Positions 1-24,581 of a stretch of 24,684 nucleotides of DNA are shown here, in pieces. This stretch comes from a virus (taxonomy: Duplodnaviria > Caudoviricetes). The stretch lies in the IMG/VR virus record IMGVR_UViG_3300008255_000458, positions 1-24,684 of that record. One strand, written 5' to 3'. Positions within the stretch are counted from its first letter, which is position 1, and each line of letters opens with the position of its first letter. Under the pieces are notes generated by a model. The model worked only from the letters and a program-made list of their open reading frames with translations. It was not told where the DNA came from and ran no database searches. Made by a program: the position numbers and the translations under genes.

Positions 1-28
1 GCCCCGGCGGTGTCCGCCCGCAGGCTAT

Positions 29-2901: not shown

Positions 2902-4269
2902 TTAGCCTGTGAATATTTGCCGCCACGTCGATGTGGTTTCGGCCACGAGAATCAAACAGCGGTTCGCGGCAATCGTGGTAGTGCCGGGCGAACCTGCGCC
3001 GTCAATCTGATCAGTACCTGCGCCGCTGATCGTGATCGTAATAGGGTTAGCGTCTGTGCGTTTGAATACGATGAACTGGCCCACATTACCGGCCAGCGAC
3101 GGCAGAGTAATTGTGTAGCTGGAAAACACGCCCGAGCAGTTCACATAGCCGGTGTAGTCATCTACAGCATCCGTGCCGGTGATAACGTCTACGATCACGC
3201 GATGCGGTAACCCTGCGAGAAAGTTACCGGGAACGATAGCTTTATCTGTTGCGCTGGCGGCGGTTGCTTCCGCGTCGGTGGCAGTTTCCAGTATACCTTT
3301 GTTAGTGGTACTGGCATCTTCGGCGCTGACAGTGATTGTGCTGCCAGCCCCGGCATCAGTCAGGTCTATCCCCTCACCGGCGGTCAACACCCGTTCGTTA
3401 GTCAGGGTTCCGTTGGTGGTCAGGGTAACATATGTAGCATCAGTCGGAGCGCCGCTGCCGCCTGCACCTAACGGCCCTGTTTCTGCGCCTGCATCATCTT
3501 TGTAGTACAGGCCGTCAGTCTTAAAATAATAGCGCCACTCGCCGGTCGCAGGGTTGGCCGGGGCGTTGCCCTCGGTCATGTTTCCGAAAGCCGCTGCGCC
3601 CGAAGTAGGATCATTGCTGCGCGCCGTGATACTAACTCCGTCGAACTGACCGCCATAACTCTGCTCGTTGGCCGACCCCGTGCCGCCCGCCACCCCAATA
3701 CCCAGCCCGGAGGCCGCATTGACATTCCCCACAATCCCGTAACTGTTGAAGCTGCCGTTGGTTGATTGCGTTTCCCCAAACACCGCCGCACCAATGGCGG
3801 AAGCGCCGGTTATATACCCCGCGACCCCGTATGCCCCAATCCCAGTGTTGGTGTTTGTGCCCTTCAGCAGCGCATCACTGGACTCGCTACCGGAAGCGGC
3901 TACTTTATCCCCCGCCGTCGCCGGACTCAGTACCGTCCCTGTACGAGTCCACAGCTCCGTAGGCAAATCCGCCGTCTGCAAATACGCCAGCGTCACACTG
4001 CCATCGGCGTTGTCTGTCAGTGAACCGTTGGGGACGATGATTGTGTCAACTGCCGCCACGTTGGGGCTTGAGTCCGTTTCACGCACTCTCAGCGATACGC
4101 CCGCGCCTGTGCCGTTCGTCGCGTCCGCATACACGATGCTGCCCGTGCTGATGCTGCTGATGCGCGGCGTGATCCGGCGCGTCCGTTTGTCTATCAACGC
4201 CAGCATATGCGCTGCATCCAGCGCAGGTCTTCGTAGGTTGTCTTCGATATTCCAATAACCGCCACTCAT
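2902..4269 (-). CDS. Tail fibre / receptor-binding protein (455 aa)
   Basis: G/A/T/S-rich; fibre-type motifs LTNERVLTAGEGI, ASTTNKGILETATDAE and ITLPS...GQFIVFKRTD...ITISG...IDG; follows the hub gene. Confidence 0.75.
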   Translation of the reverse strand: MSGGYWNIEDNLRRPALDAAHMLALIDKRTRRITPRISSISTGSIVYADATNGTGAGVSLRVRETDSSPNVAAVDTIIVPNGSLTDNADGSVTLAYLQTADLPTELWTRTGTVLSPATAGDKVAASGSESSDALLKGTNTNTGIGAYGVAGYITGASAIGAAVFGETQSTNGSFNSYGIVGNVNAASGLGIGVAGGTGSANEQSYGGQFDGVSITARSNDPTSGAAAFGNMTEGNAPANPATGEWRYYFKTDGLYYKDDAGAETGPLGAGGSGAPTDATYVTLTTNGTLTNERVLTAGEGIDLTDAGAGSTITVSAEDASTTNKGILETATDAEATAASATDKAIVPGNFLAGLPHRVIVDVITGTDAVDDYTGYVNCSGVFSSYTITLPSLAGNVGQFIVFKRTDANPITITISGAGTDQIDGAGSPGTTTIAANRCLILVAETTSTWRQIFTG

Positions 4270-6575
4270 TGCAGCACGCTCGCATCGTCATCTAACAGCG
4301 TCAACGTATACTCTGTACTGACCGGCGTAATCACAATGTCCATAGCGCGCAGCACGCCGGTATAACTGTCAGGCGTTACTGTAATCGTTTCGCCAAGCTC
4401 CGGTTTGTCCCCCTCGGCAATCACGCCTTTGTACAGATATGTTTTCTGTTGAAACATCGGCGCGCTGTGCAACAGCTTCGCCCGCGCAATGCTGATCGCC
4501 GCACCTTCACTCGACGGCCCTATGTCTATGTCCAACACCTTCGCGCTGCCTGCACTGGTACTCGCTTTCAATCCGCCGCGCACTTTCTCATGATATGCAG
4601 GCGCATAGTAATACAGCGGATCGCCTTGCTCGGTGTCGCTCGTTTGTACCAACACGTAACTCGCCACGTCGCCCTGAATCACAAGATCATGCACGACGGC
4701 CCAATAGTAATCACCGTCGCGTTTCGGGCCAGCCATGTATCTGAACATCACGCGCACGGCGTTTACGCTGGTCAACAGGAACTGCGAAAACTCCACCATG
4801 TCCGGCACGCCTTCGCTGGCTGGCAATCCGTGAATCTCGCAACCTAAATCCTGCCACGTCCCGCTGTTCGTAGAGCTGTTGTAATCGGTGCAGCCTTGCA
4901 AATAAACCTGATACGTGAAATCCGCCGCCGCCGTGGTGCGGTTCCATCCTTCAATCGCGCGATAGTTATTCACGCGGATGCTGATGGAGTCCAGTTTGAT
5001 CGCTGGCGGAGTCGTGCCAGCACCGAACCAGAATTGACAGAACTCAAAGTCGGTTGTCGGATCGTGCTGAATTTCCGCGTGCAGCTTCTGCGCCGGGTCG
5101 CCGGTAATCAACATGTCAACGCCGAAGTTGCCACGGCCCGCATCTGTATTTTCCGTCCGCGTGTCATTGCCCCAACTACTGCCGTCCGCTGTCACGCGAT
5201 ACCACGCGTCCGGTTTCGCTCCGGTCGCTGCGCAGCCAACATGCGAACTGTATGCAGGGTCAACGCGGTTAATCGCCTGATCGTCAGTGTATTTGACTCG
5301 CACCGCCGAATACACTTCATCAACGGTGGATTCAGTTTCAATTACGGATACTTCCGCCAACGTCAATACAGCCGCCGCGTTCGCTGGAATCCCCAACCGC
5401 CATTTGCCGGTAGTGTGATCGAACCAAAGTTCAACCTCATCTTCCAGCCCTACGCTCGCTATCAAATCCTGAGCGGCCTGTAATGCGTATTGCGATTTAT
5501 CTTCATCGTGATCGTAGCGCGTGATGTTGAGTCCGGTTCCGGGGAAGTTCAAATCGCCGGATACAAAGCCAGCTCCGCCGTCGCCTTTATCGGCAGTCAG
5601 AAAATACGTTACTACATCATCCAAGCTGACCGTAGTGCTGCCAGCGTCTAGCGTAGCATCATCATCGTAGCGTTTGTGTGTGCAGGTGTATGTACCGCTG
5701 GCAGTGCCGGGAAGTACGAAGCAACCGAGCCGCGTCTGTGCGGTGTATTGCGAACCGAAGCGCAACGGCACAGAGTCCTGCAACATCTTGAATGCGCTTG
5801 GCGCGATTTGCTTGGCTATCTTTTCATACACGGTGGCCGCGCCGCCTGTATGTGCTGCGGCCAGTGTACCGAGTTGCGCGCGCGCCGTGCAGTTGCAAAC
5901 GTACTTGCCGCCAGCGCCGGTGTCATCATAGCCGTCATAGTACAGCCATTCGCTGTCGATCTTCACGAATCCGCGCGGCCCGAATCCGGCGTTGCTGGTG
6001 CTGAGTACAATGTCGAACGGCGGTGTAGCCACGTCTGTGATCGAAGTATCCAGCGTATCGCTGTTGCTGCTGGCATCGCCGATGTAACACTTCGCGCCAG
6101 TCACGTCACCCGGATCAGGCCAGAGCGTATCGCCTTGGAAACTGCCGTAATCCGCAGTGGCTTTCAACGGCAGGTCAGTTACTTCCACGGCAGACGTGCT
6201 GACGCTCCAAACGTCTGCGCCGTCTTTACGCGCTATCACATGAGCCGCAACCCATTCAGGCCCGTCAATAATGACTTCCAGAAATTCGCCCTCAGAGAAT
6301 GATTTGCGACGCGGTTTGCCTGTTACTACTCCGGTGAACCATTGCGTGCTGTCGCGTTTGAATACGGCGGTGCTGAACAGTTGCAGCGGATTCGCCGTGT
6401 CGTTCGTCTCCAGTCCATACACGCTGGCGATGTTGTATCGCACGTACACTACAAGCTGGCTGATCGTCTTGAATGCTTGCCGACTCGCGGCGTATGCAAC
6501 CGGCACATCCGCACTCAACCCGCCGCTGCCGGTGTAATTCTGTTTCGGATTTGTGAATGTGACTGACCAACTCAT
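4266..6575 (-). CDS. Tail tip / baseplate hub protein with inserted domains (769 aa)
   Basis: Position after the Dit-like gene; hub-like N- and C-termini (YSAVRVKY, PELGETITV); KIDSEWLYY...RAQLGTLAAAH insert. Confidence 0.65.
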   Translation of the reverse strand: MSWSVTFTNPKQNYTGSGGLSADVPVAYAASRQAFKTISQLVVYVRYNIASVYGLETNDTANPLQLFSTAVFKRDSTQWFTGVVTGKPRRKSFSEGEFLEVIIDGPEWVAAHVIARKDGADVWSVSTSAVEVTDLPLKATADYGSFQGDTLWPDPGDVTGAKCYIGDASSNSDTLDTSITDVATPPFDIVLSTSNAGFGPRGFVKIDSEWLYYDGYDDTGAGGKYVCNCTARAQLGTLAAAHTGGAATVYEKIAKQIAPSAFKMLQDSVPLRFGSQYTAQTRLGCFVLPGTASGTYTCTHKRYDDDATLDAGSTTVSLDDVVTYFLTADKGDGGAGFVSGDLNFPGTGLNITRYDHDEDKSQYALQAAQDLIASVGLEDEVELWFDHTTGKWRLGIPANAAAVLTLAEVSVIETESTVDEVYSAVRVKYTDDQAINRVDPAYSSHVGCAATGAKPDAWYRVTADGSSWGNDTRTENTDAGRGNFGVDMLITGDPAQKLHAEIQHDPTTDFEFCQFWFGAGTTPPAIKLDSISIRVNNYRAIEGWNRTTAAADFTYQVYLQGCTDYNSSTNSGTWQDLGCEIHGLPASEGVPDMVEFSQFLLTSVNAVRVMFRYMAGPKRDGDYYWAVVHDLVIQGDVASYVLVQTSDTEQGDPLYYYAPAYHEKVRGGLKASTSAGSAKVLDIDIGPSSEGAAISIARAKLLHSAPMFQQKTYLYKGVIAEGDKPELGETITVTPDSYTGVLRAMDIVITPVSTEYTLTLLDDDASVLQ

Positions 6576-6815: not shown

Positions 6816-7643
6816 TTACATCATCGCCGTCGCTGTATCGATTTGAAATTCCAGTGTGAACTCGCCGGGTCGCATCTTGCCGTACGCAGGCCATGCGGTC
6901 GGCGTCATGCCGGTCAGATAACCAGCGTATGATTTATAGAAGCTGTCCAGTTGCGGATCAGGCGTAGCCGTTTGCGCTTCGTCAATAATGTCCAGCTTCA
7001 CTTTGTTGCGGATCAGCCACGCCAGCAGGTTCAACGTCTCCAGTTCACTGCCGCTGCTGTCCGTGTTCAACGCTTTGAATGTGCATTCAACGCTGATCGT
7101 GTATGGCCCGGTGTATGTAACGTCGCTCGCATAGAGCGTGCCGTTGATGTCACGGTGAAACAAGTCCGGGTTAGCCGGTACAGGCAAACCAAGCGGTGGA
7201 TGCAGCGTCACGTTCAACAGGAACGAATAGAACTTCGCCGTGGTAGAAACACTGGCGGCTGATATGCGAATCCAAAATGCAGACTGACCATCCTCAGTGT
7301 TCGCAGCCCAGTTCGCCAGCGTACCCCACGCTACATAGCCGTGATTCTCAAAACCGTTCGTGTCGTCAAGTATCGGCGTGAATGTTGACCAGCCCGCGCC
7401 GCTCCAGTATTCCCATGTCAACGCGCCGTAATCGCCAGCCGTGTGCATCCTGAATCCAATCTTTTGAAACGCCGCAGCCGCACCCCAATACATGAAGTCG
7501 CTGGTATCGGCCATCATGTCCTGTTGCGTCCCTACGCGCGTCAGGGCTTCGGTGTCGTAATTGTCATAGGTTGCACCGTTGTATCGGCGGCAATACAGGA
7601 ACTGCCCCGTCTGTTCGGTCAGTGTGATTTCGTTTGTTGCCAT
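6816..7643 (-). CDS. Distal-tail-like protein with an inserted Trp-rich jelly-roll/CBM-like domain (275 aa)
   Basis: Directly follows the tape measure gene (TGATG overlap); DFMYWG..WEYWSG.GW..DDTNGF..FWIRI module. Confidence 0.55.
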   Translation of the reverse strand: MATNEITLTEQTGQFLYCRRYNGATYDNYDTEALTRVGTQQDMMADTSDFMYWGAAAAFQKIGFRMHTAGDYGALTWEYWSGAGWSTFTPILDDTNGFENHGYVAWGTLANWAANTEDGQSAFWIRISAASVSTTAKFYSFLLNVTLHPPLGLPVPANPDLFHRDINGTLYASDVTYTGPYTISVECTFKALNTDSSGSELETLNLLAWLIRNKVKLDIIDEAQTATPDPQLDSFYKSYAGYLTGMTPTAWPAYGKMRPGEFTLEFQIDTATAMM

Positions 7644-9955
7644 CAGATTGCCACCCGCCGCAGTTGCATTGCGAGATTGCCGCCGCCGCGCAGTTGCGCC
7701 GTGATCTGATCAGTGCGCGATCCTGCTGAACTCAGCAATCCGCGCTGTACTGCTTTCAACAATTCAGTCGCTACATCGCCGGTATTCACCTGATACACGT
7801 ATTGCGCCGTCTGCGGCGTCTGCCCGTCTCGCGCTTTGCGACCGCCGCCGAACGCCTTGCCGATCAATCCGCTGACTGCCGCGCCGAGGAATCCGCCGAG
7901 GATGCCGCCGATAGGCCCGCTGCCTGCGAACGCATTGCTCATCAGGTCAGCAATAGGCCGCGCGATGGATTGACCGAGGCTGCTCCAATCGTTCGTTTCG
8001 ATGCCACGCCATACAGCCGCACCCATGCTCTGCCATTGCTGCACGTTGAACACGCCTTGTTTCTGTTGCGCCTTCTCTGCGGCTTGCGTAGCGCCGCCGC
8101 CTGCGCGTGACCCTACTGTCCATCCGAGCGATGCGCCGGGAAGTCCGCTGTTTGAGCTACCGCCACCTGACGGTTTCCAGCCACTTCAGCTAGTCCCCGC
8201 GCCGGTCGTAGCGCAGCTCTGTTCGTATCGTTGACCGTCTGGCCCTGTTTTGTATTCTGTTTTGGAACCGCCAGCGCCACCCCAATTCAATCCGCTGCCG
8301 GTAACTTGGAACGTGTCTGCGTTGAATCCGCCTAGCCCCGCTTGCGCCGCTTCAGTAAATGCACCCCAGCCGCTGGCCGCTGAATCTGCCGCGCCGCTGA
8401 TTGCAGCGTTGACGTTGTTAAACGCCGCCGCCAGCGCGTTGACCTCCTCTGACAATATGCTGACCGGATCAACCATGTCTCGCCATGTTTGCGGATTTGC
8501 CGATGCGTTCCAGCGTTCGAACGCGAGACGGCTGGCCTCCATTGCCAGTTTGCCTTTATCGGCCCAGTCTATGAAGTTCTGCCATTCTTTACTCAGCCCA
8601 CCGACTTTCTCAGCAGCCTCTTTCGCAGCACCGCCGCTTTTGTCCAACGCATCCGTAGTTTCCCCCATCTTCGACGGAGCTACCGCGTATTCCTCATTCA
8701 TCGCGCGCAGGTTTTCGGCAGTTTCACCCGCCGCCGAAACAAACTGCATCATCTGTTTCTCTACTTCAATCTGAGCGTCAAGCACGCCGCCAATGGCTGA
8801 TTCCGTATCTCCCATTAACTGAATGTTTTTAATAGCCCATGATCCCAGACCGCTGGTATCAATGCCACCGAATGAAATAAACCCAAGTCCCTGCACACCT
8901 CCGCCGCCGGGCAGTGACGCAAACGCAGACTTGATAACCGCCAACCATATATTCAGTGCCGTGGTTGCAATGCTAATTGCATTGCTGATCCCGTCCAACA
9001 TCGCTTTGATTCCCAACGTCACACCTAGCCCAATCGACTGAATCGCCAGCGCCACGCCTTGCACAATCAACTTGAATGCGGTAGCCGTACGCGATACAGC
9101 CAATACCACGTTGCTGACGAACGCGGCCATTGATTCCAAAATGTCCGCGATGTTGCTGGTCTGCACTTTCTTGTTATCGTCGCTGGCTTGCGACCAGCCG
9201 AACAGCGCATCTTTCACAAGACCGATCAATAACGTAGTAGCTTTAATCCCCTCGATCACACGCGGATTCTGCGTAATCCATGCGCCGATGCCTTCTTTCA
9301 AATCACCCCAAGCGTTTTTCAGTTGTTTGATTGAACCTTCGAACGTCATGGTTTCAGCTTTCGCTATCGCCATACCCGCTTTCGTAGCTTCGAGAATCTG
9401 GTTTAACTGTTCCTGTTGCGTCCCTGTTTTGTCTACCTGAATGCCGTAGCGCATCATCAGCGACGTAGTGCTGACCAGCTCTTTGCCGATGATCCGCGCC
9501 GCAGCCGTTGCGTCCGTTCCCATCACGTTCGCAAATTGAATCGTCGCTTGTGTAGCTTGAATCAACGGCCCTTCACTGAGTCCAGTCAGAGCTTCGATCT
9601 GCGCGGCAATGCCGATAGTTACTTCATCGCCGATGGTTGTAACGGCCTGCATCGAACTGGCGAAATCCCGAATCCGCGCTGACGCTTCAGCCGTGAAGTT
9701 GCCATGCGCTTGCAATGATGCATTGAGCCGCGATACGGCGCGTTCCTCCTCTTGCGCCGCCGCCATACTGCTTCGCATGAATCCGGCCAGAGCGCGGATT
9801 GTCAGACCCGCAGCGGCAATTCCAAGCAGTCGTTTCGCAGTAGTGGCGAGTGGATTGTTCGCAGCCGCGGCACTCGTGCCGATCGCCTTGATCGGCCCGG
9901 TCGCTTTGTCAACGACCTTTAATACGACTTCCAGAATTTCCTGTTCGTTAGCCAT
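7643..9955 (-). CDS. Tail tape measure protein, 770 aa if the single in-frame TGA at 8186-8188 is read through (probably as selenocysteine); 589 aa if it terminates there
   Basis: TMP N-terminus (LEVVLKVVDKATGPI; FASSMQAVTTIGDE; GSIKQLKNAWGDLKEGIG). ORFs 8186..9955 and 7643..8053 are in the same frame and separated only by one TGA. The C-terminal part has TMP-like GGILGGFLGAAV and DGQTPQTAQYVYQVN. Confidence 0.8.
8155..8185 (-). promoter_or_regulatory. SECIS-like hairpin downstream of the in-frame UGA
   Basis: UGA-AGUGGCUGGAA(11 nt)-ACCGUC-AGGU-GGCGGU-AGCU: 6-bp upper stem, AGGU apical loop, GGCU/AGCU lower stem. Confidence 0.65.
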
Positions 9956-10325
9956 GATACTTCGCTAGGTTCTGCTTCGCCTGCTCTTTGTCCTGCTCCA
10001 TCTTCTCCATCTGCATCTTCGCAAATTCGCTGTCCATGATGCGCATCGCTTCTACATACACGAACGGCTGATCCTCAATCCCGCCGCTGCGTAACAGATG
10101 ACCCGCCTTGTAATGGCCGTAAAGTTTGCCGCACGTAAACGCGAAGTCGCTGACCTCCAACCACGGGCAATGATGGTACGTGTCATAGACCCACGCTTCA
10201 TCGCCAAACTCATTGATGACCTCCAAACGAGGATTCAGTTTTATTCCGCCGGGCTGTCCGCAGGCGCATTCGCTTTCGACTCCCCGGCAATCGAGTCCGA
10301 TGCTGGAGAGTCGGCAGTAAAAACG
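9948..10325 (-). CDS. Tail assembly chaperone GT extension, expressed by -1 frameshift
   Basis: The -1 frame opens just after a TGA at the C GTT TTT site and reads FYCRLSSIGLDCRGVESECACGQP...HCPW...YKAGHLLRSGGIEDQP. Confidence 0.7.
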   Translation of the reverse strand, partial: RFYCRLSSIGLDCRGVESECACGQPGGIKLNPRLEVINEFGDEAWVYDTYHHCPWLEVSDFAFTCGKLYGHYKAGHLLRSGGIEDQPFVYVEAMRIMDSEFAKMQMEKMEQDKEQAKQNLAKYHG

Positions 10326-10771
10326 AGGTCAGCAGATTGCGCCTCCGTCACGCCGTTGACCACGGCTGTTACCAACTGCGTCAACTGTCCATAGAGCAAT
10401 CCCGGCACTAGCTTCATCGTCTTTTCGCTGACCTTCTCAACGCCGTCCTCAGTCACGAACTCCAGCTTGAATGGAACCATCTCGCCGCTGCGTATGCGAC
10501 CCTCTACACCTTCGACGTCTTTCCACAACCGCCGCAGTAATTCATACTGATACGATTCGGCTGCATCATCATCGAACGTGTTCACTTCGCGCTTGCCTTT
10601 CTTTTCCTTGCGCCAGAACTTCATGTTCAACCGCGTAGCTTCGCGCGCCGTAATGTTCGCCATCAACACGCGCACGCCTTCCAGCGGCCACGGCTGATCC
10701 TGCTCCAACAATTCAGGTCGCGGGAATTCATGCCACGCCTGATCCAATCCCTCTAATGCAATCTCGAACAC
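10241..10771 (-). CDS. Tail assembly chaperone G (176 aa)
   Basis: Lies between the tail tube and TMP genes; AGGAGG SD; slippery site near the 3' end. Confidence 0.7.
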   Translation of the reverse strand: MFEIALEGLDQAWHEFPRPELLEQDQPWPLEGVRVLMANITAREATRLNMKFWRKEKKGKREVNTFDDDAAESYQYELLRRLWKDVEGVEGRIRSGEMVPFKLEFVTEDGVEKVSEKTMKLVPGLLYGQLTQLVTAVVNGVTEAQSADLVFTADSPASDSIAGESKANAPADSPAE

Positions 10772-10790: not shown

Positions 10791-11699
10791 TTAGGTAAAT
10801 GTGAACTTCAACAGCTCACTGGTATCGTATCCCATGTCGGCGGTCAGCCGATGATACGCGGTCTTGTTCACCCATTCCACCGCCGGGGCCGCGTTCAGAT
10901 AGAACGTGCCGGTAATGGTCAGGATGTTGCCAGCCGATGCGCCATACACCATGCTCAATGCCAGCGTCGTGCCGCTCGTGTAGTCGGTGTAATAATTCTC
11001 CGTGCTGAATGCTGGAATCTCCGCCAGCAGGCTCAGCGTCGGCGTGCTATCCACGAGATCAGGCAGATCAACGCCGGTGGTACTGCTACCGGTCAGTCGA
11101 TCATTCGGACTGTTGCTCTCGTTGTTTAGAGCAATGTCAAACTCGCGGATGTGCAGGGAGTCACTTGCCAGCGTGCCGGTCAGGTCACGTCCGATGATCG
11201 GCACGGCTTTCGTTCCGAGCGTATCACTGCCAGTCGCTTCAGTCGGTGCGGTGTATTGACCCCAGCCGCTCCACGCTGCAATCAACGGCGCTCCTACACG
11301 TCCGCGAAACACCGCGTCCAGCAAACAGTTCGTACTCGGTTGTTTCAGTCCGTTGCCGATGAACTGTGAGAGCGCCGCGATCTTCGTAGTCGCGTGCGTC
11401 AGACTCCATGTGTAGGTAACGCTCGTGCTGACTACGACGGCTTCTGCCATGCCTGCCGCCGCGAACAGCGTGCCTTCCGGTGGCGCTGTGCCAGCCGCGC
11501 CACTGCCAGCGATTTGCGATTCGAATCCCGGTTCTGTCCAAATCTTGCCAGCACGCGGAATGTCCCGCGTGGCAATCGGACGGTTGATGTTGTTATCGTA
11601 GCTTTCGCTGACGATCCAGTCCGGCTTGATGTTTTGTACAGCGAGCAGGTTCGTTCCGTCTTCAACCCGCGTCTGTGTGTCAAACCACGGTGCAGCCAT
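10791..11699 (-). CDS. Major tail tube protein (302 aa)
   Basis: GSGAAGTAPP..LFAAAGM..SVTYT and GASAGNILTIT motifs typical of siphovirus tube proteins; position. Confidence 0.75.
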   Translation of the reverse strand: MAAPWFDTQTRVEDGTNLLAVQNIKPDWIVSESYDNNINRPIATRDIPRAGKIWTEPGFESQIAGSGAAGTAPPEGTLFAAAGMAEAVVVSTSVTYTWSLTHATTKIAALSQFIGNGLKQPSTNCLLDAVFRGRVGAPLIAAWSGWGQYTAPTEATGSDTLGTKAVPIIGRDLTGTLASDSLHIREFDIALNNESNSPNDRLTGSSTTGVDLPDLVDSTPTLSLLAEIPAFSTENYYTDYTSGTTLALSMVYGASAGNILTITGTFYLNAAPAVEWVNKTAYHRLTADMGYDTSELLKFTFT

Positions 11700-12650: not shown

Positions 12651-13775
12651 TTAATCCGCTGCGTTCAGGTAAACCGTAACATCCTCGACGGCGGAAGTAT
12701 CGGAGGCGTCGGTGGTTCCGCCCCAATCGAGTTTCACCGCGAAGGCGTTTGTGCCGGTTGTGTCGAAACTGGAGAAGGTCTCCATGTCGCCGCCGGTCAG
12801 GATGGCCGGAGCCACGGGCGCCCCCGTTTCATCAATCACAGTGAAATGATATGTGGCGATGCCGGTGCCGGAAGCGCCGGTAACGCGAACCTTCACCGTA
12901 CCGCGCAGCGTGATACTGGTGGCCTGATCGATTGCCACATCGCCGGTCGCGCCAATCAACTGCAACCCGGCATACACATTCACGGCCAGCGTCTCTGTGC
13001 CCGGTACGGCGGGCGTGGCGGAAACAACAACCACATAATCAATCACGTTACCCGCTTCGAGGTTCGCATCGCCAAAATCCGTGGCGATGGTTTCAGGATC
13101 ATCCGCGCTGGCCGGCATGACAACCGTTTCAGCCGCAGTCGCGCCCGTATGTGCGGCAGACGCAGCGGTCGCGGAATACATCAACCGCTGTGCTGGCCGC
13201 TGAGTAATCGCGCCCGTGGTGCTGACCGTCCAAAAGTTGCCCGCCGTGGTCGGCAGTGCGTTCGGCGCGGTGTACTCGATGTCAGCGGCGAGTGTAGCCG
13301 GGGCAGTGAAACTGACGGTGTTTGTACCGCCACCGGAGCCTTCAAGTAACGCCAGAGTACCGCCGCCTGTACCAGCGCCGAGTTTCAGCACCTGCGCGTT
13401 TGTCGTGCCAACGTAAGTCGCAAACAAAGTATCTTCGGTCAGGATACCCGCCGTACCGACCAGCGGAACGGAGTTCGCCGTCAGGCCGGTATCGCCTGCG
13501 CCGGTGTCGATCCATGCCAACGCGCCGCTGCCATCCGTCTTGAGTACCTGTCCAGCGTCGCCGTCATTGGCAGGTAACGTGTATGCCACATCTGCGGACT
13601 GCGCAACCGTCGAGATGGTAGACCAGTTTGAACTCCCATCGCTCAGGCCAATCAACCCTTTGTGGTTTGCATCTCCGCGATACAGATCGCGGACTGTTTG
13701 CCCGATAGCCGGAGTTGCAACCAGCATCATTGCCAGCATCAACCACCCGGCTATCTGCGCTCGTGTGAGTTTCAT
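12651..13775 (-). CDS. Fibre-like protein with an N-terminal Sec-type signal peptide (374 aa)
   Basis: MKLTRAQIAGWLMLAMMLVATPAIG|Q followed by the YTLPANDGDAGQVLKTDGSGALAW fibre motif; ATGA coupling and AGAGGT SD. Confidence 0.6.
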   Translation of the reverse strand: MKLTRAQIAGWLMLAMMLVATPAIGQTVRDLYRGDANHKGLIGLSDGSSNWSTISTVAQSADVAYTLPANDGDAGQVLKTDGSGALAWIDTGAGDTGLTANSVPLVGTAGILTEDTLFATYVGTTNAQVLKLGAGTGGGTLALLEGSGGGTNTVSFTAPATLAADIEYTAPNALPTTAGNFWTVSTTGAITQRPAQRLMYSATAASAAHTGATAAETVVMPASADDPETIATDFGDANLEAGNVIDYVVVVSATPAVPGTETLAVNVYAGLQLIGATGDVAIDQATSITLRGTVKVRVTGASGTGIATYHFTVIDETGAPVAPAILTGGDMETFSSFDTTGTNAFAVKLDWGGTTDASDTSAVEDVTVYLNAAD

Positions 13776-16814: not shown

Positions 16815-17537
16815 TTACCTCTCCGATAGTTTTCTTACAACTTCAAGTGCCTGATCACGAACGCTAATCAACAGCGCCATGTCGAGACTCGGTTGCAATG
16901 AAGTGTCATCAGACGGCTTCACCGTTACTTCAGTGGCGGCTTGACGGGCAGCTTGCCATTGGTCAAGTGCCGGAGTATGTACTCCCAATTCTAACATGAA
17001 GTCTACCATCGCGTCATAGTTCGCGCGGACTTCGCGAGCAGTCGCATTCGGCGCGGCCTGAAAGTCTGGCGGCGTGATGCTGTACTCAAAGAGTTTCAAT
17101 TCGGTTATCTCAGTTGGTTCACTTGCGCCGCTATCGCTGTCCTTTGCCGCTTTCCATTTGATCGGCTTGAATCCGATGCTCAATCCAGCAGGGCGTTTCA
17201 ATTCGGCGGCCAGCTTGATGAAGCTGTATGTGGCGAGCGACTTCGCGTTATCGCGGATGTTCAATCCGCCTTGCACGTAATAGCCGTGTTCCTGTTCCTC
17301 AGCGGCCAGCCCCATGCCGACCGGCAGCTCAAACGGATCGTGCATGTACAGGATCGGCACTTTGCCGCCGTTGGCGCGATGCGTTTGTTTGAATGCACCC
17401 GGCTTGACGATCTCGTTATAGCTCGGAACCAGTTCGTTGAACATCGCGGCGTATCCTTCGAACACGCCCAGATCATCGCGGTTTTCGATGTCGCCCAGTT
17501 TGAGCTTGGCAGTGAAATAATGTTTCATCTCGCTCAT
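16815..17537 (-). CDS. HK97-family prohead protease (240 aa)
   Basis: FEGYAAMFN, PGAF, PILYMHD, GLSIGF and LFEYSI motifs. Confidence 0.9.
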   Translation of the reverse strand: MSEMKHYFTAKLKLGDIENRDDLGVFEGYAAMFNELVPSYNEIVKPGAFKQTHRANGGKVPILYMHDPFELPVGMGLAAEEQEHGYYVQGGLNIRDNAKSLATYSFIKLAAELKRPAGLSIGFKPIKWKAAKDSDSGASEPTEITELKLFEYSITPPDFQAAPNATAREVRANYDAMVDFMLELGVHTPALDQWQAARQAATEVTVKPSDDTSLQPSLDMALLISVRDQALEVVRKLSER

Positions 17538-19702
17538 ACGGCCTCCATGTCGTCAAGTAATCCGGCTGTCACGCACCTGCAATTTATATCTTCGCTTGCC
17601 ACGCCGCTCAATCCCGGCCCTGGCGATGGTATGCCCTCCAGATCGAACTCGCCATCCAGCGGTCGAACCTGTCCATCCAGCCCTTCGTATGACGGATGGC
17701 GTTCGCCGCCGTCGCGTGCCGTGATCCATTCCATGCGTAACGTCTTGCCGGTCGCTTCAGTGAATTGCGCATACCCTTCTTTCGTAGCCAGTGTATCCGC
17801 GCGTCCGACTTCCGTTCGCGCTATCGCCTCAGCCCGCGCAGCAGTAATGCCGCCTTTCTCATTCACGTTGAAGTAATCCTGAATCGCCTCTTTGACACTC
17901 AACTCGCCGCCTTGCGCTTCGTTGATGACGCGGTTGATCTGTTCCGCTGTCGCCTCGTTTATCAACCTGCTGCGCTTGGCGAGGTCTTTTGTCAGGAATG
18001 TAGTGAACAGCGGACGGCTCTGGTCAATAAGCAGGCTCTGCCCTAAGTTTTCCACTGCGGCCAACGCCATGCCTGCAAGCATTTCGCGGAACAGCGTCTC
18101 AAACAAGTCAACGAAAACCTCCGCCTCTTCCTCGTCGTTCAATAGATCGGCGGCGCTCACTGCGCGAGTTGCCATGTATCCCTTTCGCGCCAACCGTTCC
18201 ATGATGCGCTCTTGCTGGCCTGACCAGTATTCAGCCAACGTGCTGCGCATCTTCCGTTCCCACTTCACGCGCTTGGCTTCGCGGCGTTTCACTTCGGCAG
18301 CACGCAACTCCAGCGTCGGATACATGCTGCGCGGATGGAATACCGGGTCAGCGCGGCGCTGCATCCGTTCCTCATCCTCCATCGGCGGCTCTTCGGCTGG
18401 CGGTTCAGGTTCGGGCGCTTCCTCCACCGGCTCATCCACCGGCGGGCGCAATGCAGCCGTCGCAATCTCGATGTATGTAAGCTCGCCGATGGGCCGTTCA
18501 AGCGGTTGCAGCCCTTGCCGTTCACGCGCTTCGTTTACGGTCAGCCAATCGCTCAGCGCAATCTCTTTCGCCACGTCCGCGCTGTTTTCCTGCAACGCCG
18601 GGATGTCTCGTGTATCCAGCGTCAACGTGATTGAATCATCGCGCATCCACTGGCGCAACTTCCATTGCAGCTCTGACGCGAATTGCTTCATGTGTGGCAA
18701 TACCGCGTTTACGTAAAACCATTCATCAGCGGCGGCGGCGTTGGCAAACGTACTCGCTCCCATATCGCCCACGAGGATGCTCGGTACATTCATCACGGCG
18801 CAAATCCTGCGTAACATCGTCAGATCGCCGCTGACCCAATCCATGTCCTTCGGCGAGAATCCCATCATCTGCAAATCCAGCGTATCGGCGTTGACCACGG
18901 CCACACGGCCAATGTTCTGCGTCCCTGATACCTGCCGCTCAATCTCCGTGCGAACCTTGTCCCGCTCTTGCTCTTTGCTGTATTTGCTGCCGGTGATCCG
19001 CGCAATCGCGCTAGGCATCCCGCTCCGCTGCAACAGCGTCTTGTTCCATCGCTGGCCGAGGTTGCTGGTGTCAATCGCATACGCTGCGGATTCCAGCGGC
19101 GAATGCGGAGTCAGTTCGCCCGTCGGATGTTCAGCCCGGATATACAGCATTTCTTCCGGCGAGATGATTTCCTTGCTGCCCTTGCCATCGTTGTATTCGT
19201 AGCCGGTCACGTCCCACTTGCCGAGCGTCAATCGCACATAATCAGGACGGCGCAATCGCAGCGCCATCGTAACCGGTATGCGAGTACCGCCAAGAAACGG
19301 TTTCGCCAATACGTTGAATCCTTGCACGAACGCAGCACCCGCGAGATGATATTGCAACACCTCCAGCATGATGAAGCTGGCGTAGCCCTGCTGCGGATTC
19401 GGACGTTGCAACAGCGCAGCGAGTATCGCCTGATCCGGCGTGAACTCTTCCGGCGGGATGATGCTGCCATTCACGATCTCGCTGTCCGGTTCGGCCAGCC
19501 TGATGCCGACTGACCCGCAACCTTGCCCGAACTTGTTCAGACAGGCGGCGAGTACAGGGTTCATTTGCCAGCCTTCACGCACGAAGTCAGTGAATCGCCA
19601 TGCCGATGTAGTTTCTAAATCCAGTCCCCAACTGATGATTTCAGACAGTGAAGCGCGAGTGGCAAGCTGCCATCCAGCTCTGAATCTGTTCAACCAGTTC
19701 AA
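17534..19702 (-). CDS. HK97-type portal protein fused to a Mu gpF / SPP1 gp7-like head morphogenesis domain (722 aa)
   Basis: Portal motifs LLQRPNP, SPLESA, SPKDMD, NVPSILVG and LTVNEARERQGL; then a P/E linker; then RAEAIARTE, EWITARD and EDINCRC. Confidence 0.88.
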   Translation of the reverse strand: MNWLNRFRAGWQLATRASLSEIISWGLDLETTSAWRFTDFVREGWQMNPVLAACLNKFGQGCGSVGIRLAEPDSEIVNGSIIPPEEFTPDQAILAALLQRPNPQQGYASFIMLEVLQYHLAGAAFVQGFNVLAKPFLGGTRIPVTMALRLRRPDYVRLTLGKWDVTGYEYNDGKGSKEIISPEEMLYIRAEHPTGELTPHSPLESAAYAIDTSNLGQRWNKTLLQRSGMPSAIARITGSKYSKEQERDKVRTEIERQVSGTQNIGRVAVVNADTLDLQMMGFSPKDMDWVSGDLTMLRRICAVMNVPSILVGDMGASTFANAAAADEWFYVNAVLPHMKQFASELQWKLRQWMRDDSITLTLDTRDIPALQENSADVAKEIALSDWLTVNEARERQGLQPLERPIGELTYIEIATAALRPPVDEPVEEAPEPEPPAEEPPMEDEERMQRRADPVFHPRSMYPTLELRAAEVKRREAKRVKWERKMRSTLAEYWSGQQERIMERLARKGYMATRAVSAADLLNDEEEAEVFVDLFETLFREMLAGMALAAVENLGQSLLIDQSRPLFTTFLTKDLAKRSRLINEATAEQINRVINEAQGGELSVKEAIQDYFNVNEKGGITAARAEAIARTEVGRADTLATKEGYAQFTEATGKTLRMEWITARDGGERHPSYEGLDGQVRPLDGEFDLEGIPSPGPGLSGVASEDINCRCVTAGLLDDMEAV

Positions 19703-23983: not shown

Positions 23984-24239
23984 CGGGCGTTACGCCCAGC
24001 GCATCGCAAAGGTGCGCGACTTCGGTTTGCAGGGCGCACAGTACGCCCTCATCGCATGGCAGGCAACCGGATAGCCGATAGCCCGCCTCTGCCTTCGCCA
24101 GCCTGTCCAGCAGGCCATCGACGTAGGCGAGCAGCGCCTCTCGAATTTCATCGTCCGTATACGTCGCGGCGGGCCGCCCGGCGCGGATGCTGGTAGCCCA
24201 CTTCCGCAGGGCAGCAGGCATGTCGGGGGTGTAGCTCAT
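23967..24239 (-). CDS. Hypothetical protein (90 aa)
   Basis: GAGGAG SD; ATGA coupling. Confidence 0.6.
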   Translation of the reverse strand: MSYTPDMPAALRKWATSIRAGRPAATYTDDEIREALLAYVDGLLDRLAKAEAGYRLSGCLPCDEGVLCALQTEVAHLCDALGVTPEGVKE

Positions 24240-24581
24240 ACATTCTCCTCGCCCTGTTCGGGCTGCAATTCGGGTTCGACGTGTGGAAGATCGGCGGGCC
24301 AGCCGGGGAATAGTTCTGCGAATGTTTCGGAATCAATCCACATACCGCCGGTCATTTCATAGCCAGCGCCTGACTCGCGCCAATTCCCCTGTTCAAGAAC
24401 CTCACGCAATCCTTGCACCAGCATTTTGGCTACATATGCTTCTGTGTTGCCTTTGCAGTCGGGACATTCAACCCACTGCCCGCTCGTCACATCGCCATTG
24501 TTGTAGCAGCGTCCGGGGTAATCCGGATCGCAGGTATTGCAGGTATAGTTGCTCATACATTCTCCTTGCCCTGTTCGGGCT
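24234..24581. repeat. 31-bp direct repeat with 1 mismatch (minus strand AGCCCGAACAGGGCRAGGAGAATGTATGAGC) at 24234-24264 and 24551-24581
   Basis: Read directly; contains gene end, SD and start. Confidence 0.85.
24236..24556 (-). CDS. Hypothetical protein with a zinc-finger (CNTC...CPDCKG), 106 aa
   Basis: AAGGAG SD; DnaJ-like Cys pattern. Confidence 0.6.
   Translation of the reverse strand: MSNYTCNTCDPDYPGRCYNNGDVTSGQWVECPDCKGNTEAYVAKMLVQGLREVLEQGNWRESGAGYEMTGGMWIDSETFAELFPGWPADLPHVEPELQPEQGEENV

Follow-up and report, generated by a model that had tools for sequence, protein, structure and literature searches.

A candidate selenocysteine codon with a SECIS-type hairpin in the tape measure gene of a siphophage-like virus

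The interrupted tape measure gene

The virus record IMGVR_UViG_3300008255_000458 (Duplodnaviria; Caudoviricetes) is a 24.7-kb contig, analyzed here over its entire length of 24,684 nucleotides (the window). Its minus strand bears a siphophage-like morphogenesis module with terminase, portal, protease, major head protein, head-tail proteins and tube, and an amidase lies further down. The subject of this work is the tape measure protein (TMP) gene of that module (Table 1), which is broken by an in-frame TGA followed by a hairpin, and for which an initial annotation had proposed decoding of the UGA as selenocysteine (Sec) at a selenocysteine insertion sequence (SECIS). The two TMP open reading frames (ORFs) named in that annotation do form one frame, the minus strand from 9955 to 7643 reading as 770 codons plus a stop with a lone internal TGA, and the terminal TGA overlaps the ATG of the next gene as described. 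The coding frame is open on both sides of the internal TGA, as in a selenoprotein gene, and the codon score of 7646-8053 is coding-like (0.21, other window genes scoring 0.02-0.24). The strongest clue, missed in the initial annotation, is a single Cys 9 codons upstream of the UGA.

Table 1. Coordinates of the TMP gene, its recoding elements and the neighboring tail genes in the window
Feature	Position	Strand	Remarks
Tape measure protein (TMP), part before UGA	8189..9955	(-)	589 aa, single Cys at 581
Cys581, predicted partner of recoded residue (Cys-x8-Sec)	8213..8215	(-)	aligned with first Cys of homologues' pair
In-frame TGA, codon 590, likely selenocysteine	8186..8188	(-)	equivalent TGA in L002, L026, L090
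Bacterial SECIS-like hairpin	8159..8174	(-)	6-bp stem at +12..17, AGGU loop at +18..21
TMP C-terminal part behind UGA	7643..8185	(-)	180 aa; Gly/Ser linker, DW helix, glycine-rich hydrophobic helices
Gene after TMP, Dit-like by position only	6816..7643	(-)	275 aa; ATG overlaps TMP stop; no family match
Likely tail hub/tip protein, by position	4266..6575	(-)	769 aa; no informative family match
Tail assembly chaperone pair, G and T type	9948..10771	(-)	overlapping open -1 frame
Tail tube protein	10791..11699	(-)	PF18906, E 1.5e-5, below its cut-off; aligned with relatives

The part before the UGA was called as TMP from its gene position between the tail chaperones and the Dit-like gene and has no hidden Markov model match of its own; P0028, a homologue of this N-terminal part, matches the TMP family phrog_167. 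The part behind the UGA (C-part) gives the sole TMP profile match in the window, a weak one to phrog_973 (E 0.004), and the whole protein gives none. The C-part is homologous to the C-termini of fused TMPs. The TMPs of three relatives, L002, L026 and L090, pass TIGR01760, and TMP PHROGs are matched by P0004, P0008, P0028 and L010. The placement is that of a tape measure gene, a long gene between the tube and chaperone genes and the Dit and hub genes, the labels Dit and hub being positional only.

The TGA was confirmed in contigs, not raw reads, with 0 differences in run X1, the probable source of the window (depth 9.8), and in run X3, where a contig at 8037-8491 (depth 3.1) covers the codon. 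The codon is uncovered in the other 5 of 7 runs and is also present in a second assembly, L012. The metagenome runs containing the window come from aquifer and groundwater, and no RNA run is among those listed. A sequencing error, a recent nonsense mutation or a genome-wide reassignment of TGA (code 4 or 25) could be suspected in a contig from a metagenome of low depth (about 10), but the TGA recurs in X3 and L012 and is in place in three distant phages, and TGA ends 13 other genes of the window, where long genes have no internal TGA. We regard explanations of this kind as extremely improbable; assembly error was rejected on the evidence of X3 and L012, and genome-wide recoding on the normal use of TGA as a stop elsewhere in the window. 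This normal use, already pointed out in the initial annotation, was borne out by 32 hand-picked window ORFs, 14 of which terminate in TGA, 13 of these overlapping a downstream ATG, with the internal TGA of the TMP gene as the sole exception. The remaining 18 ORFs end in TAA or TAG, and the near-confinement of TGA to ATGA and TGATG overlaps could indicate that free UGA stops are avoided where the host uses Sec.

A search with residues 480-770 against 1.84 billion representatives returned 27 matches including the window's own protein, and 14 of these are proteins of 100-156 aa that align to the part behind the TGA only, several of them on short contigs and possibly fragments. Such proteins could point to a true gene split, in which translation of a 589-aa TMP stops at the UGA and a separate C-part arises by initiation at an internal start, in imitation of the proteolytic release of a tip plug; in-frame starts exist at 8053, 8044 and 8026, and C-terminal fragments are cleaved off the TMP of DT57C according to the available part of PMC10713586. 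However, all four split loci with DNA keep both parts in one frame with TGA as the stop, the linker is open for at least 34 codons before a start, the Shine-Dalgarno (SD) sequences are weak and the pairing of Cys with TGA would go unexplained, and we consider a split very unlikely. The earlier statement that the C-part has no clear SD stands in that its four in-frame starts are weak (-1.5 to -3.0 kcal), but it carries little weight, since the start of TMP itself is also weak (-0.4).

The Cys/UGA pair and the hairpin in relatives

Five homologues carry a Cys pair just upstream of the C-domain, Cx4C in P0004, P0008 and P0011 and Cx9C in P0018 and P0028, and in four of the five the pair represents the sole cysteines of the protein. 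The TGA aligns with the second Cys of the pair and the only Cys of the window protein (581) lies on or beside the first. The aligned position is therefore occupied by TGA or Cys and not by random residues, as in selenoproteins with Cys homologues. Two matches, P0012 and P0020, were left out as likely spurious, and P0029-P0032 are N-terminal relatives without Cys and without the C-domain.

Relatives with DNA were found by scans with P0007 and P0042 and by alignments of neighboring genes, the 769-aa likely hub protein serving as anchor; no relative came from scanning viral contigs with one protein at a time (C-part, tube, Dit-like) or from tblastn against INPHARED phages. Eight distinct phages with DNA, window included, carry this TMP C-domain, not counting L011 and L014-L022, where tblastn found no C-part, L027-L029, which are unrelated proteins of low complexity or of other kinds, and the duplicates L012/L013, L091/L092/L097-L099, L093/L100 and L094. 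Half of them (4/8) are split, all at a TGA, as C-x8-U in the window, C-x6-U in L002 and C-x4-U in L026 and L090, the Cys lying 9, 7, 5 and 5 codons before the TGA, respectively. Given as Cys position over length of the N-part, the values are 581/589 in the window, 918/924 in L002, 889/893 in L026 and 585+854/858 in L090, and this upstream Cys is the only one (or one of two, in L090) in the 858-924 residues of the three relatives. The chance product of such Cys placement for the three non-window loci is 2e-6. With L002, L026 and L090, the combination of UGA and SECIS-type hairpin is found in homologous genes, as expected for a selenoprotein family. In a tree of the C-domain the UGA, Cys-Cys and motif-less forms are intermixed, with mostly weak support. 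L002 has a second in-frame TGA at 7971-7973, 54 codons later; a G-loop hairpin lies 15-16 nt from it, no Cys is adjacent, and this TMP is a possible two-Sec case.

The hairpin that had been placed 11 nt past the UGA was recovered, the stem 8174-8169 / 8164-8159 and the AGGU loop 8168-8165 forming in folds of 99, 59, 41 and 29 nt, with a shifted register in a 121-nt fold, whereas the lower GGCU/AGCU stem claimed beneath it forms in a 40-nt fold only. Its stability is unremarkable, with z scores of -2.2 (29 nt), -1.2 (41 nt) and about 0, up to +0.4, on longer pieces. The proposed likeness to E. coli fdhF was upheld by the fetched record, which has AGGU at +18..21 too. The consensus for bacterial SECIS (bSECIS) in the available part of PMC13188914 requires a loop of 3-9 nt, a stem of 4-16 bp, G in the first two loop positions, a distance of 16-37 nt from the UGA and a minimum free energy (MFE) of at most -7.5. 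Coded as our own script, not bSECISearch, this consensus describes the window site (AGGU loop, 17 nt, 6 bp, -12.5 kcal) as well as L026, L090, the second L002 site, fdhF and the selD site of the genome bin G001, and its MFE version is passed by three of the four Cys-adjacent sites. The geometry recurs at all four split sites, as conservation of the hairpin would have it, with three different stem sequences (window/L002, L026, L090): the stem has 5-7 bp and the G-loop starts 17-18 nt after the UGA (18 in fdhF, 17 in G001 selD), its position remaining constant while the stem sequence differs. Aligned by a hand register from the loop outward, which favors the structure, 23 of 24 pairs hold and both sides are changed at three positions. 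Frame, TGA, hairpin geometry and the Cys or TGA in relatives are a real and conserved feature.

A UGA followed by A is a leaky context, and A follows the UGA in the window. Programmed leaky readthrough by a near-cognate tRNA (e.g. Trp) in the manner of Q-beta, with the hairpin only determining how much short and how much long TMP is made and the inserted residue being indifferent, could provide two useful TMP lengths. However, G follows the UGA in the three relatives, and indifference to the residue leaves the lone Cys 5-9 codons upstream and the aligned Cys unexplained, making such readthrough quite unlikely. Since the aligned residue in homologues is Cys, one could also imagine that the UGA is read as cysteine, restoring a Cys-Cys pair, either by a Cys-tRNA with a UCA anticodon, as occurs in some anaerobes, or by a SelB-like host route, for which a SelB-type hairpin would appear identical. 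This is unlikely as no tRNA was found in the window or in contig C362, the one in G403 is of unclear type, and the hairpin geometry is that of ordinary Sec sites.

Predicted decoding, host and surrounding module

With a probability of roughly 0.8, we favor UGA 590 as a selenocysteine codon in a phage TMP, decoded by host SelB at a bacterial SECIS-type hairpin, a reading already given in the initial annotation and contradicted by none of the refutation tests that were run. Host SelB and Sec-tRNA would read the UGA to give a predicted 770-aa protein with the motif Cys581-x8-Sec590, the G-loop being bound by SelB and the SelB-GTP-Sec-tRNA complex recruited there, by analogy with E. coli fdhF. Recoding of fdhF is 30-40% and selenium-dependent, with RF2 terminating the remainder, as the available part of PMC4513850 reports. 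If recoding were similarly partial here, both the 589-aa and the 770-aa forms would be made.

In an AlphaFold model with U read as C, pLDDT (predicted local distance difference test) is about 92 over model residues 31-60, a three-strand patch in which strands 41-49 and 52-55 place C46 and C55 symmetrically about a two-residue turn. The Cys and the Sec are thus predicted to face each other across a two-residue beta-turn, where, on the reading we favor, they would form a selenenylsulfide staple of the beta-hairpin, and the relatives with a Cys pair would have a disulfide at the staple position. A selenenylsulfide forms and persists under more reducing conditions than a disulfide. Less probably, the Cys/Sec pair may contribute to a metal site from several chains. 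Foldseek with a 235-aa model gave no match at E <= 0.001. The TMP's C-terminal fragment is a trimer in the tail tip of DT57C, and also in T5, lambda and 80alpha, according to the available part of PMC10713586, and the part behind the UGA would by analogy be the source of the C-terminal tail-tip plug. If this tip role holds, only recoded chains would seed a tail and tails would need a host that inserts Sec, the gating already put forward in the initial annotation; with a tail-tip domain behind the UGA, host selenium and Sec capacity would set the output of infectious tails. Relatives lacking the motif show that the staple is dispensable for tail building in this group. We tentatively propose, at slightly less than even odds, a siphophage family whose virions contain selenium, as a Cys-Sec TMP staple made by host SelB, and in which host selenium supply and Sec capacity set the numbers of full-length TMP and of infectious tails.

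Several points weigh against the selenocysteine reading. The loose bSECIS consensus describes 950 of 3433 coding-strand TGAs and is weak alone (162 pass with the loop restricted to 16-18 nt), and the threshold of a strict direct test, passed by 61 of the 3433 including all four Cys-adjacent sites, was fixed after the sites were seen. The peptide itself predisposes to the hairpin: when its codons are redrawn synonymously, 11-19% of the sequences pass the strict test, and 241, 501, 26 and 127 of 5000 for the four sites match the real hairpin in stability. Among the in-frame codon positions within the four TMP genes, 17/569, 12/904, 22/873 and 32/838 pass it. The first L002 site fails the MFE consensus test, its hairpin having a 5-bp stem and a GGGC loop at the same offset in the direct test, and an Rfam search at the hairpin site gave no match. 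The Cys-Cys homologues are known as proteins only, and three full-length homologues (P0017, P0019 and P0021) have no Cys. The other four of the eight phages (L010, L089, L095 and L096) are fused, without Cys motif and TGA, which makes the motif optional within the group. In a tree of the hub protein L002, L026 and L090 form one clade (100/99) with the window apart, and there are perhaps only two independent lineages. The spacing C-x4-8-U differs from the usual CxxU/UxxC redox motif in the available part of PMC13188914. On the structural side, the whole AlphaFold model is poor (predicted template modeling score, pTM, 0.30), the pairing across strands was taken from strand boundaries and not from coordinates, and Cys pairs may inflate local model confidence. 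Finally, the host of the window was not found by the searches made, which bears on the dependence on SelB.

Two further searches concerned the site itself. The DNA pattern of a TGA with the window/L002 hairpin gave 58 loci, none of them TMP-like (0/58), and is therefore uninformative alone. By our reading of the candidates, the window, C362, G402 and G403 contain no other UGA-plus-hairpin site in a real gene.

For the relative L002, which is in a Dissulfurispiraceae genome bin (G001), the bin has SelB and a TGA-bearing SelD over cut-off, while tRNA-Sec was not over cut-off. The L002 contig is phage-only by its ORFs, with no visible host flank, and the two parts of it that were compared match nothing else in the bin, so that the link of L002 to G001 is one of binning alone. 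Among 401 genomes of G001's phylum, the C-part profile matched one, G001 itself, and window DNA matched eight, one match being phage-to-phage and seven short; the seven have no repeat array nearby, and no spacer-like match was found in the 401 genomes. The L002 phage contig gave no spacer match either, and no tRNA-Sec was found in three phage records of relatives. The tRNA-like gene in G403 lies at L106 6584-6659 and received an unclear four-base anticodon call.

Other features of the module were noted. The 275-aa Dit-like gene has a homologue in the same place in L002, L010 and L026, and the N-terminal domain of its product recurs inside unrelated long repeat-rich proteins (L014-L022). The chaperone pair has a likely -1 frameshift site near 10325-10319 (-), where an open -1 frame runs over the last part of the G gene; this overlap and a T-run at the site are present in 8/8 phages, the window heptamer being less canonical than in most relatives. 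If the frameshift holds, two recoding events would directly follow one another in the tail operon. A 374-aa Cys-free protein with a signal-peptide-like hydrophobic N-terminus and no Pfam, PHROG or NCBIfam match is encoded at 12651-13775 (-), between the neck and tail-terminator genes. At 17534-19702 (-) a portal is fused to a Mu gpF-like head morphogenesis domain, with no internal UGA. The 22 bases upstream of the ORFs with starts at 24239 and 24556 (regions 24236-24260 and 24556-24580) differ at one position and form a repeated translation-start cassette.

Comparison with known systems

To our knowledge, the selenoproteins known from prokaryotes are cellular proteins, in the main redox enzymes, whereas the candidate described here is phage-encoded and belongs to a structural tail protein. 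The elements are shared with E. coli fdhF and selD, which likewise have an in-frame UGA, a stem from +12, a G-loop at +18 and Cys homologues. No NCBIfam selenoprotein model matches the window TMP. The words phage and virus are absent from the main text of a 2026 review and two selenoprotein resources (PMC13188914, PMC13326102 and PMC12013277), whose supplements could list phage-derived entries. No TMP with an internal Sec codon was found in a literature search, nor any report of a phage selenoprotein or of TMP readthrough, in a coverage that mostly leaves out subscription papers.

Readthrough in Q-beta is near-cognate, with no SECIS and no Cys partner. It resembles the present case in that one UGA of a phage gives rise to a shorter and a longer virion protein, coat and A1 (available part of PMC8310308). 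The viral selenoproteins found in the literature, as far as the available text of PMC8310308 goes, are poxvirus glutathione peroxidases, e.g. of fowlpox, where host Sec machinery decodes a viral UGA. Poxviruses are eukaryotic viruses with a captured cellular enzyme and a eukaryotic SECIS, whereas here a bacterial SECIS lies in the phage's own virion gene. In phages with recoded stop codons (TAG=Gln, TGA=Trp) a late structural gene likewise depends on the decoding of a stop as sense, as the available part of PMC9523058 describes (see also 10.1101/2021.08.26.457843); there many genes are affected, whereas here each TMP has a single site (L002 has two) and TGA is still a stop elsewhere. With siphophage TMPs (TP901 type; DT57C/T5, lambda, 80alpha) the window protein shares gene position, size and a conserved C-terminal segment, but the C-terminal plug of known TMPs is released by proteolysis (available part of PMC10713586), whereas here an internal UGA precedes the C-terminal part.

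If the tentative proposal of a selenium-dependent siphophage family is true, it would amount to the first family of phage selenoproteins and to a nutrient checkpoint during virion assembly. Sec in the tail protein of a phage would bring the 21st amino acid into phages and give it a structural role. Host range and burst would then be tied to the Sec trait of the host, and the sequence would be a marker of a Sec-using host. It would also mean that gene callers split such TMP genes, the 14/27 matches mentioned above being short C-terminal ORFs. Set beside these systems, the decoding system is the known bacterial one, and what is new is its use in a phage virion protein.

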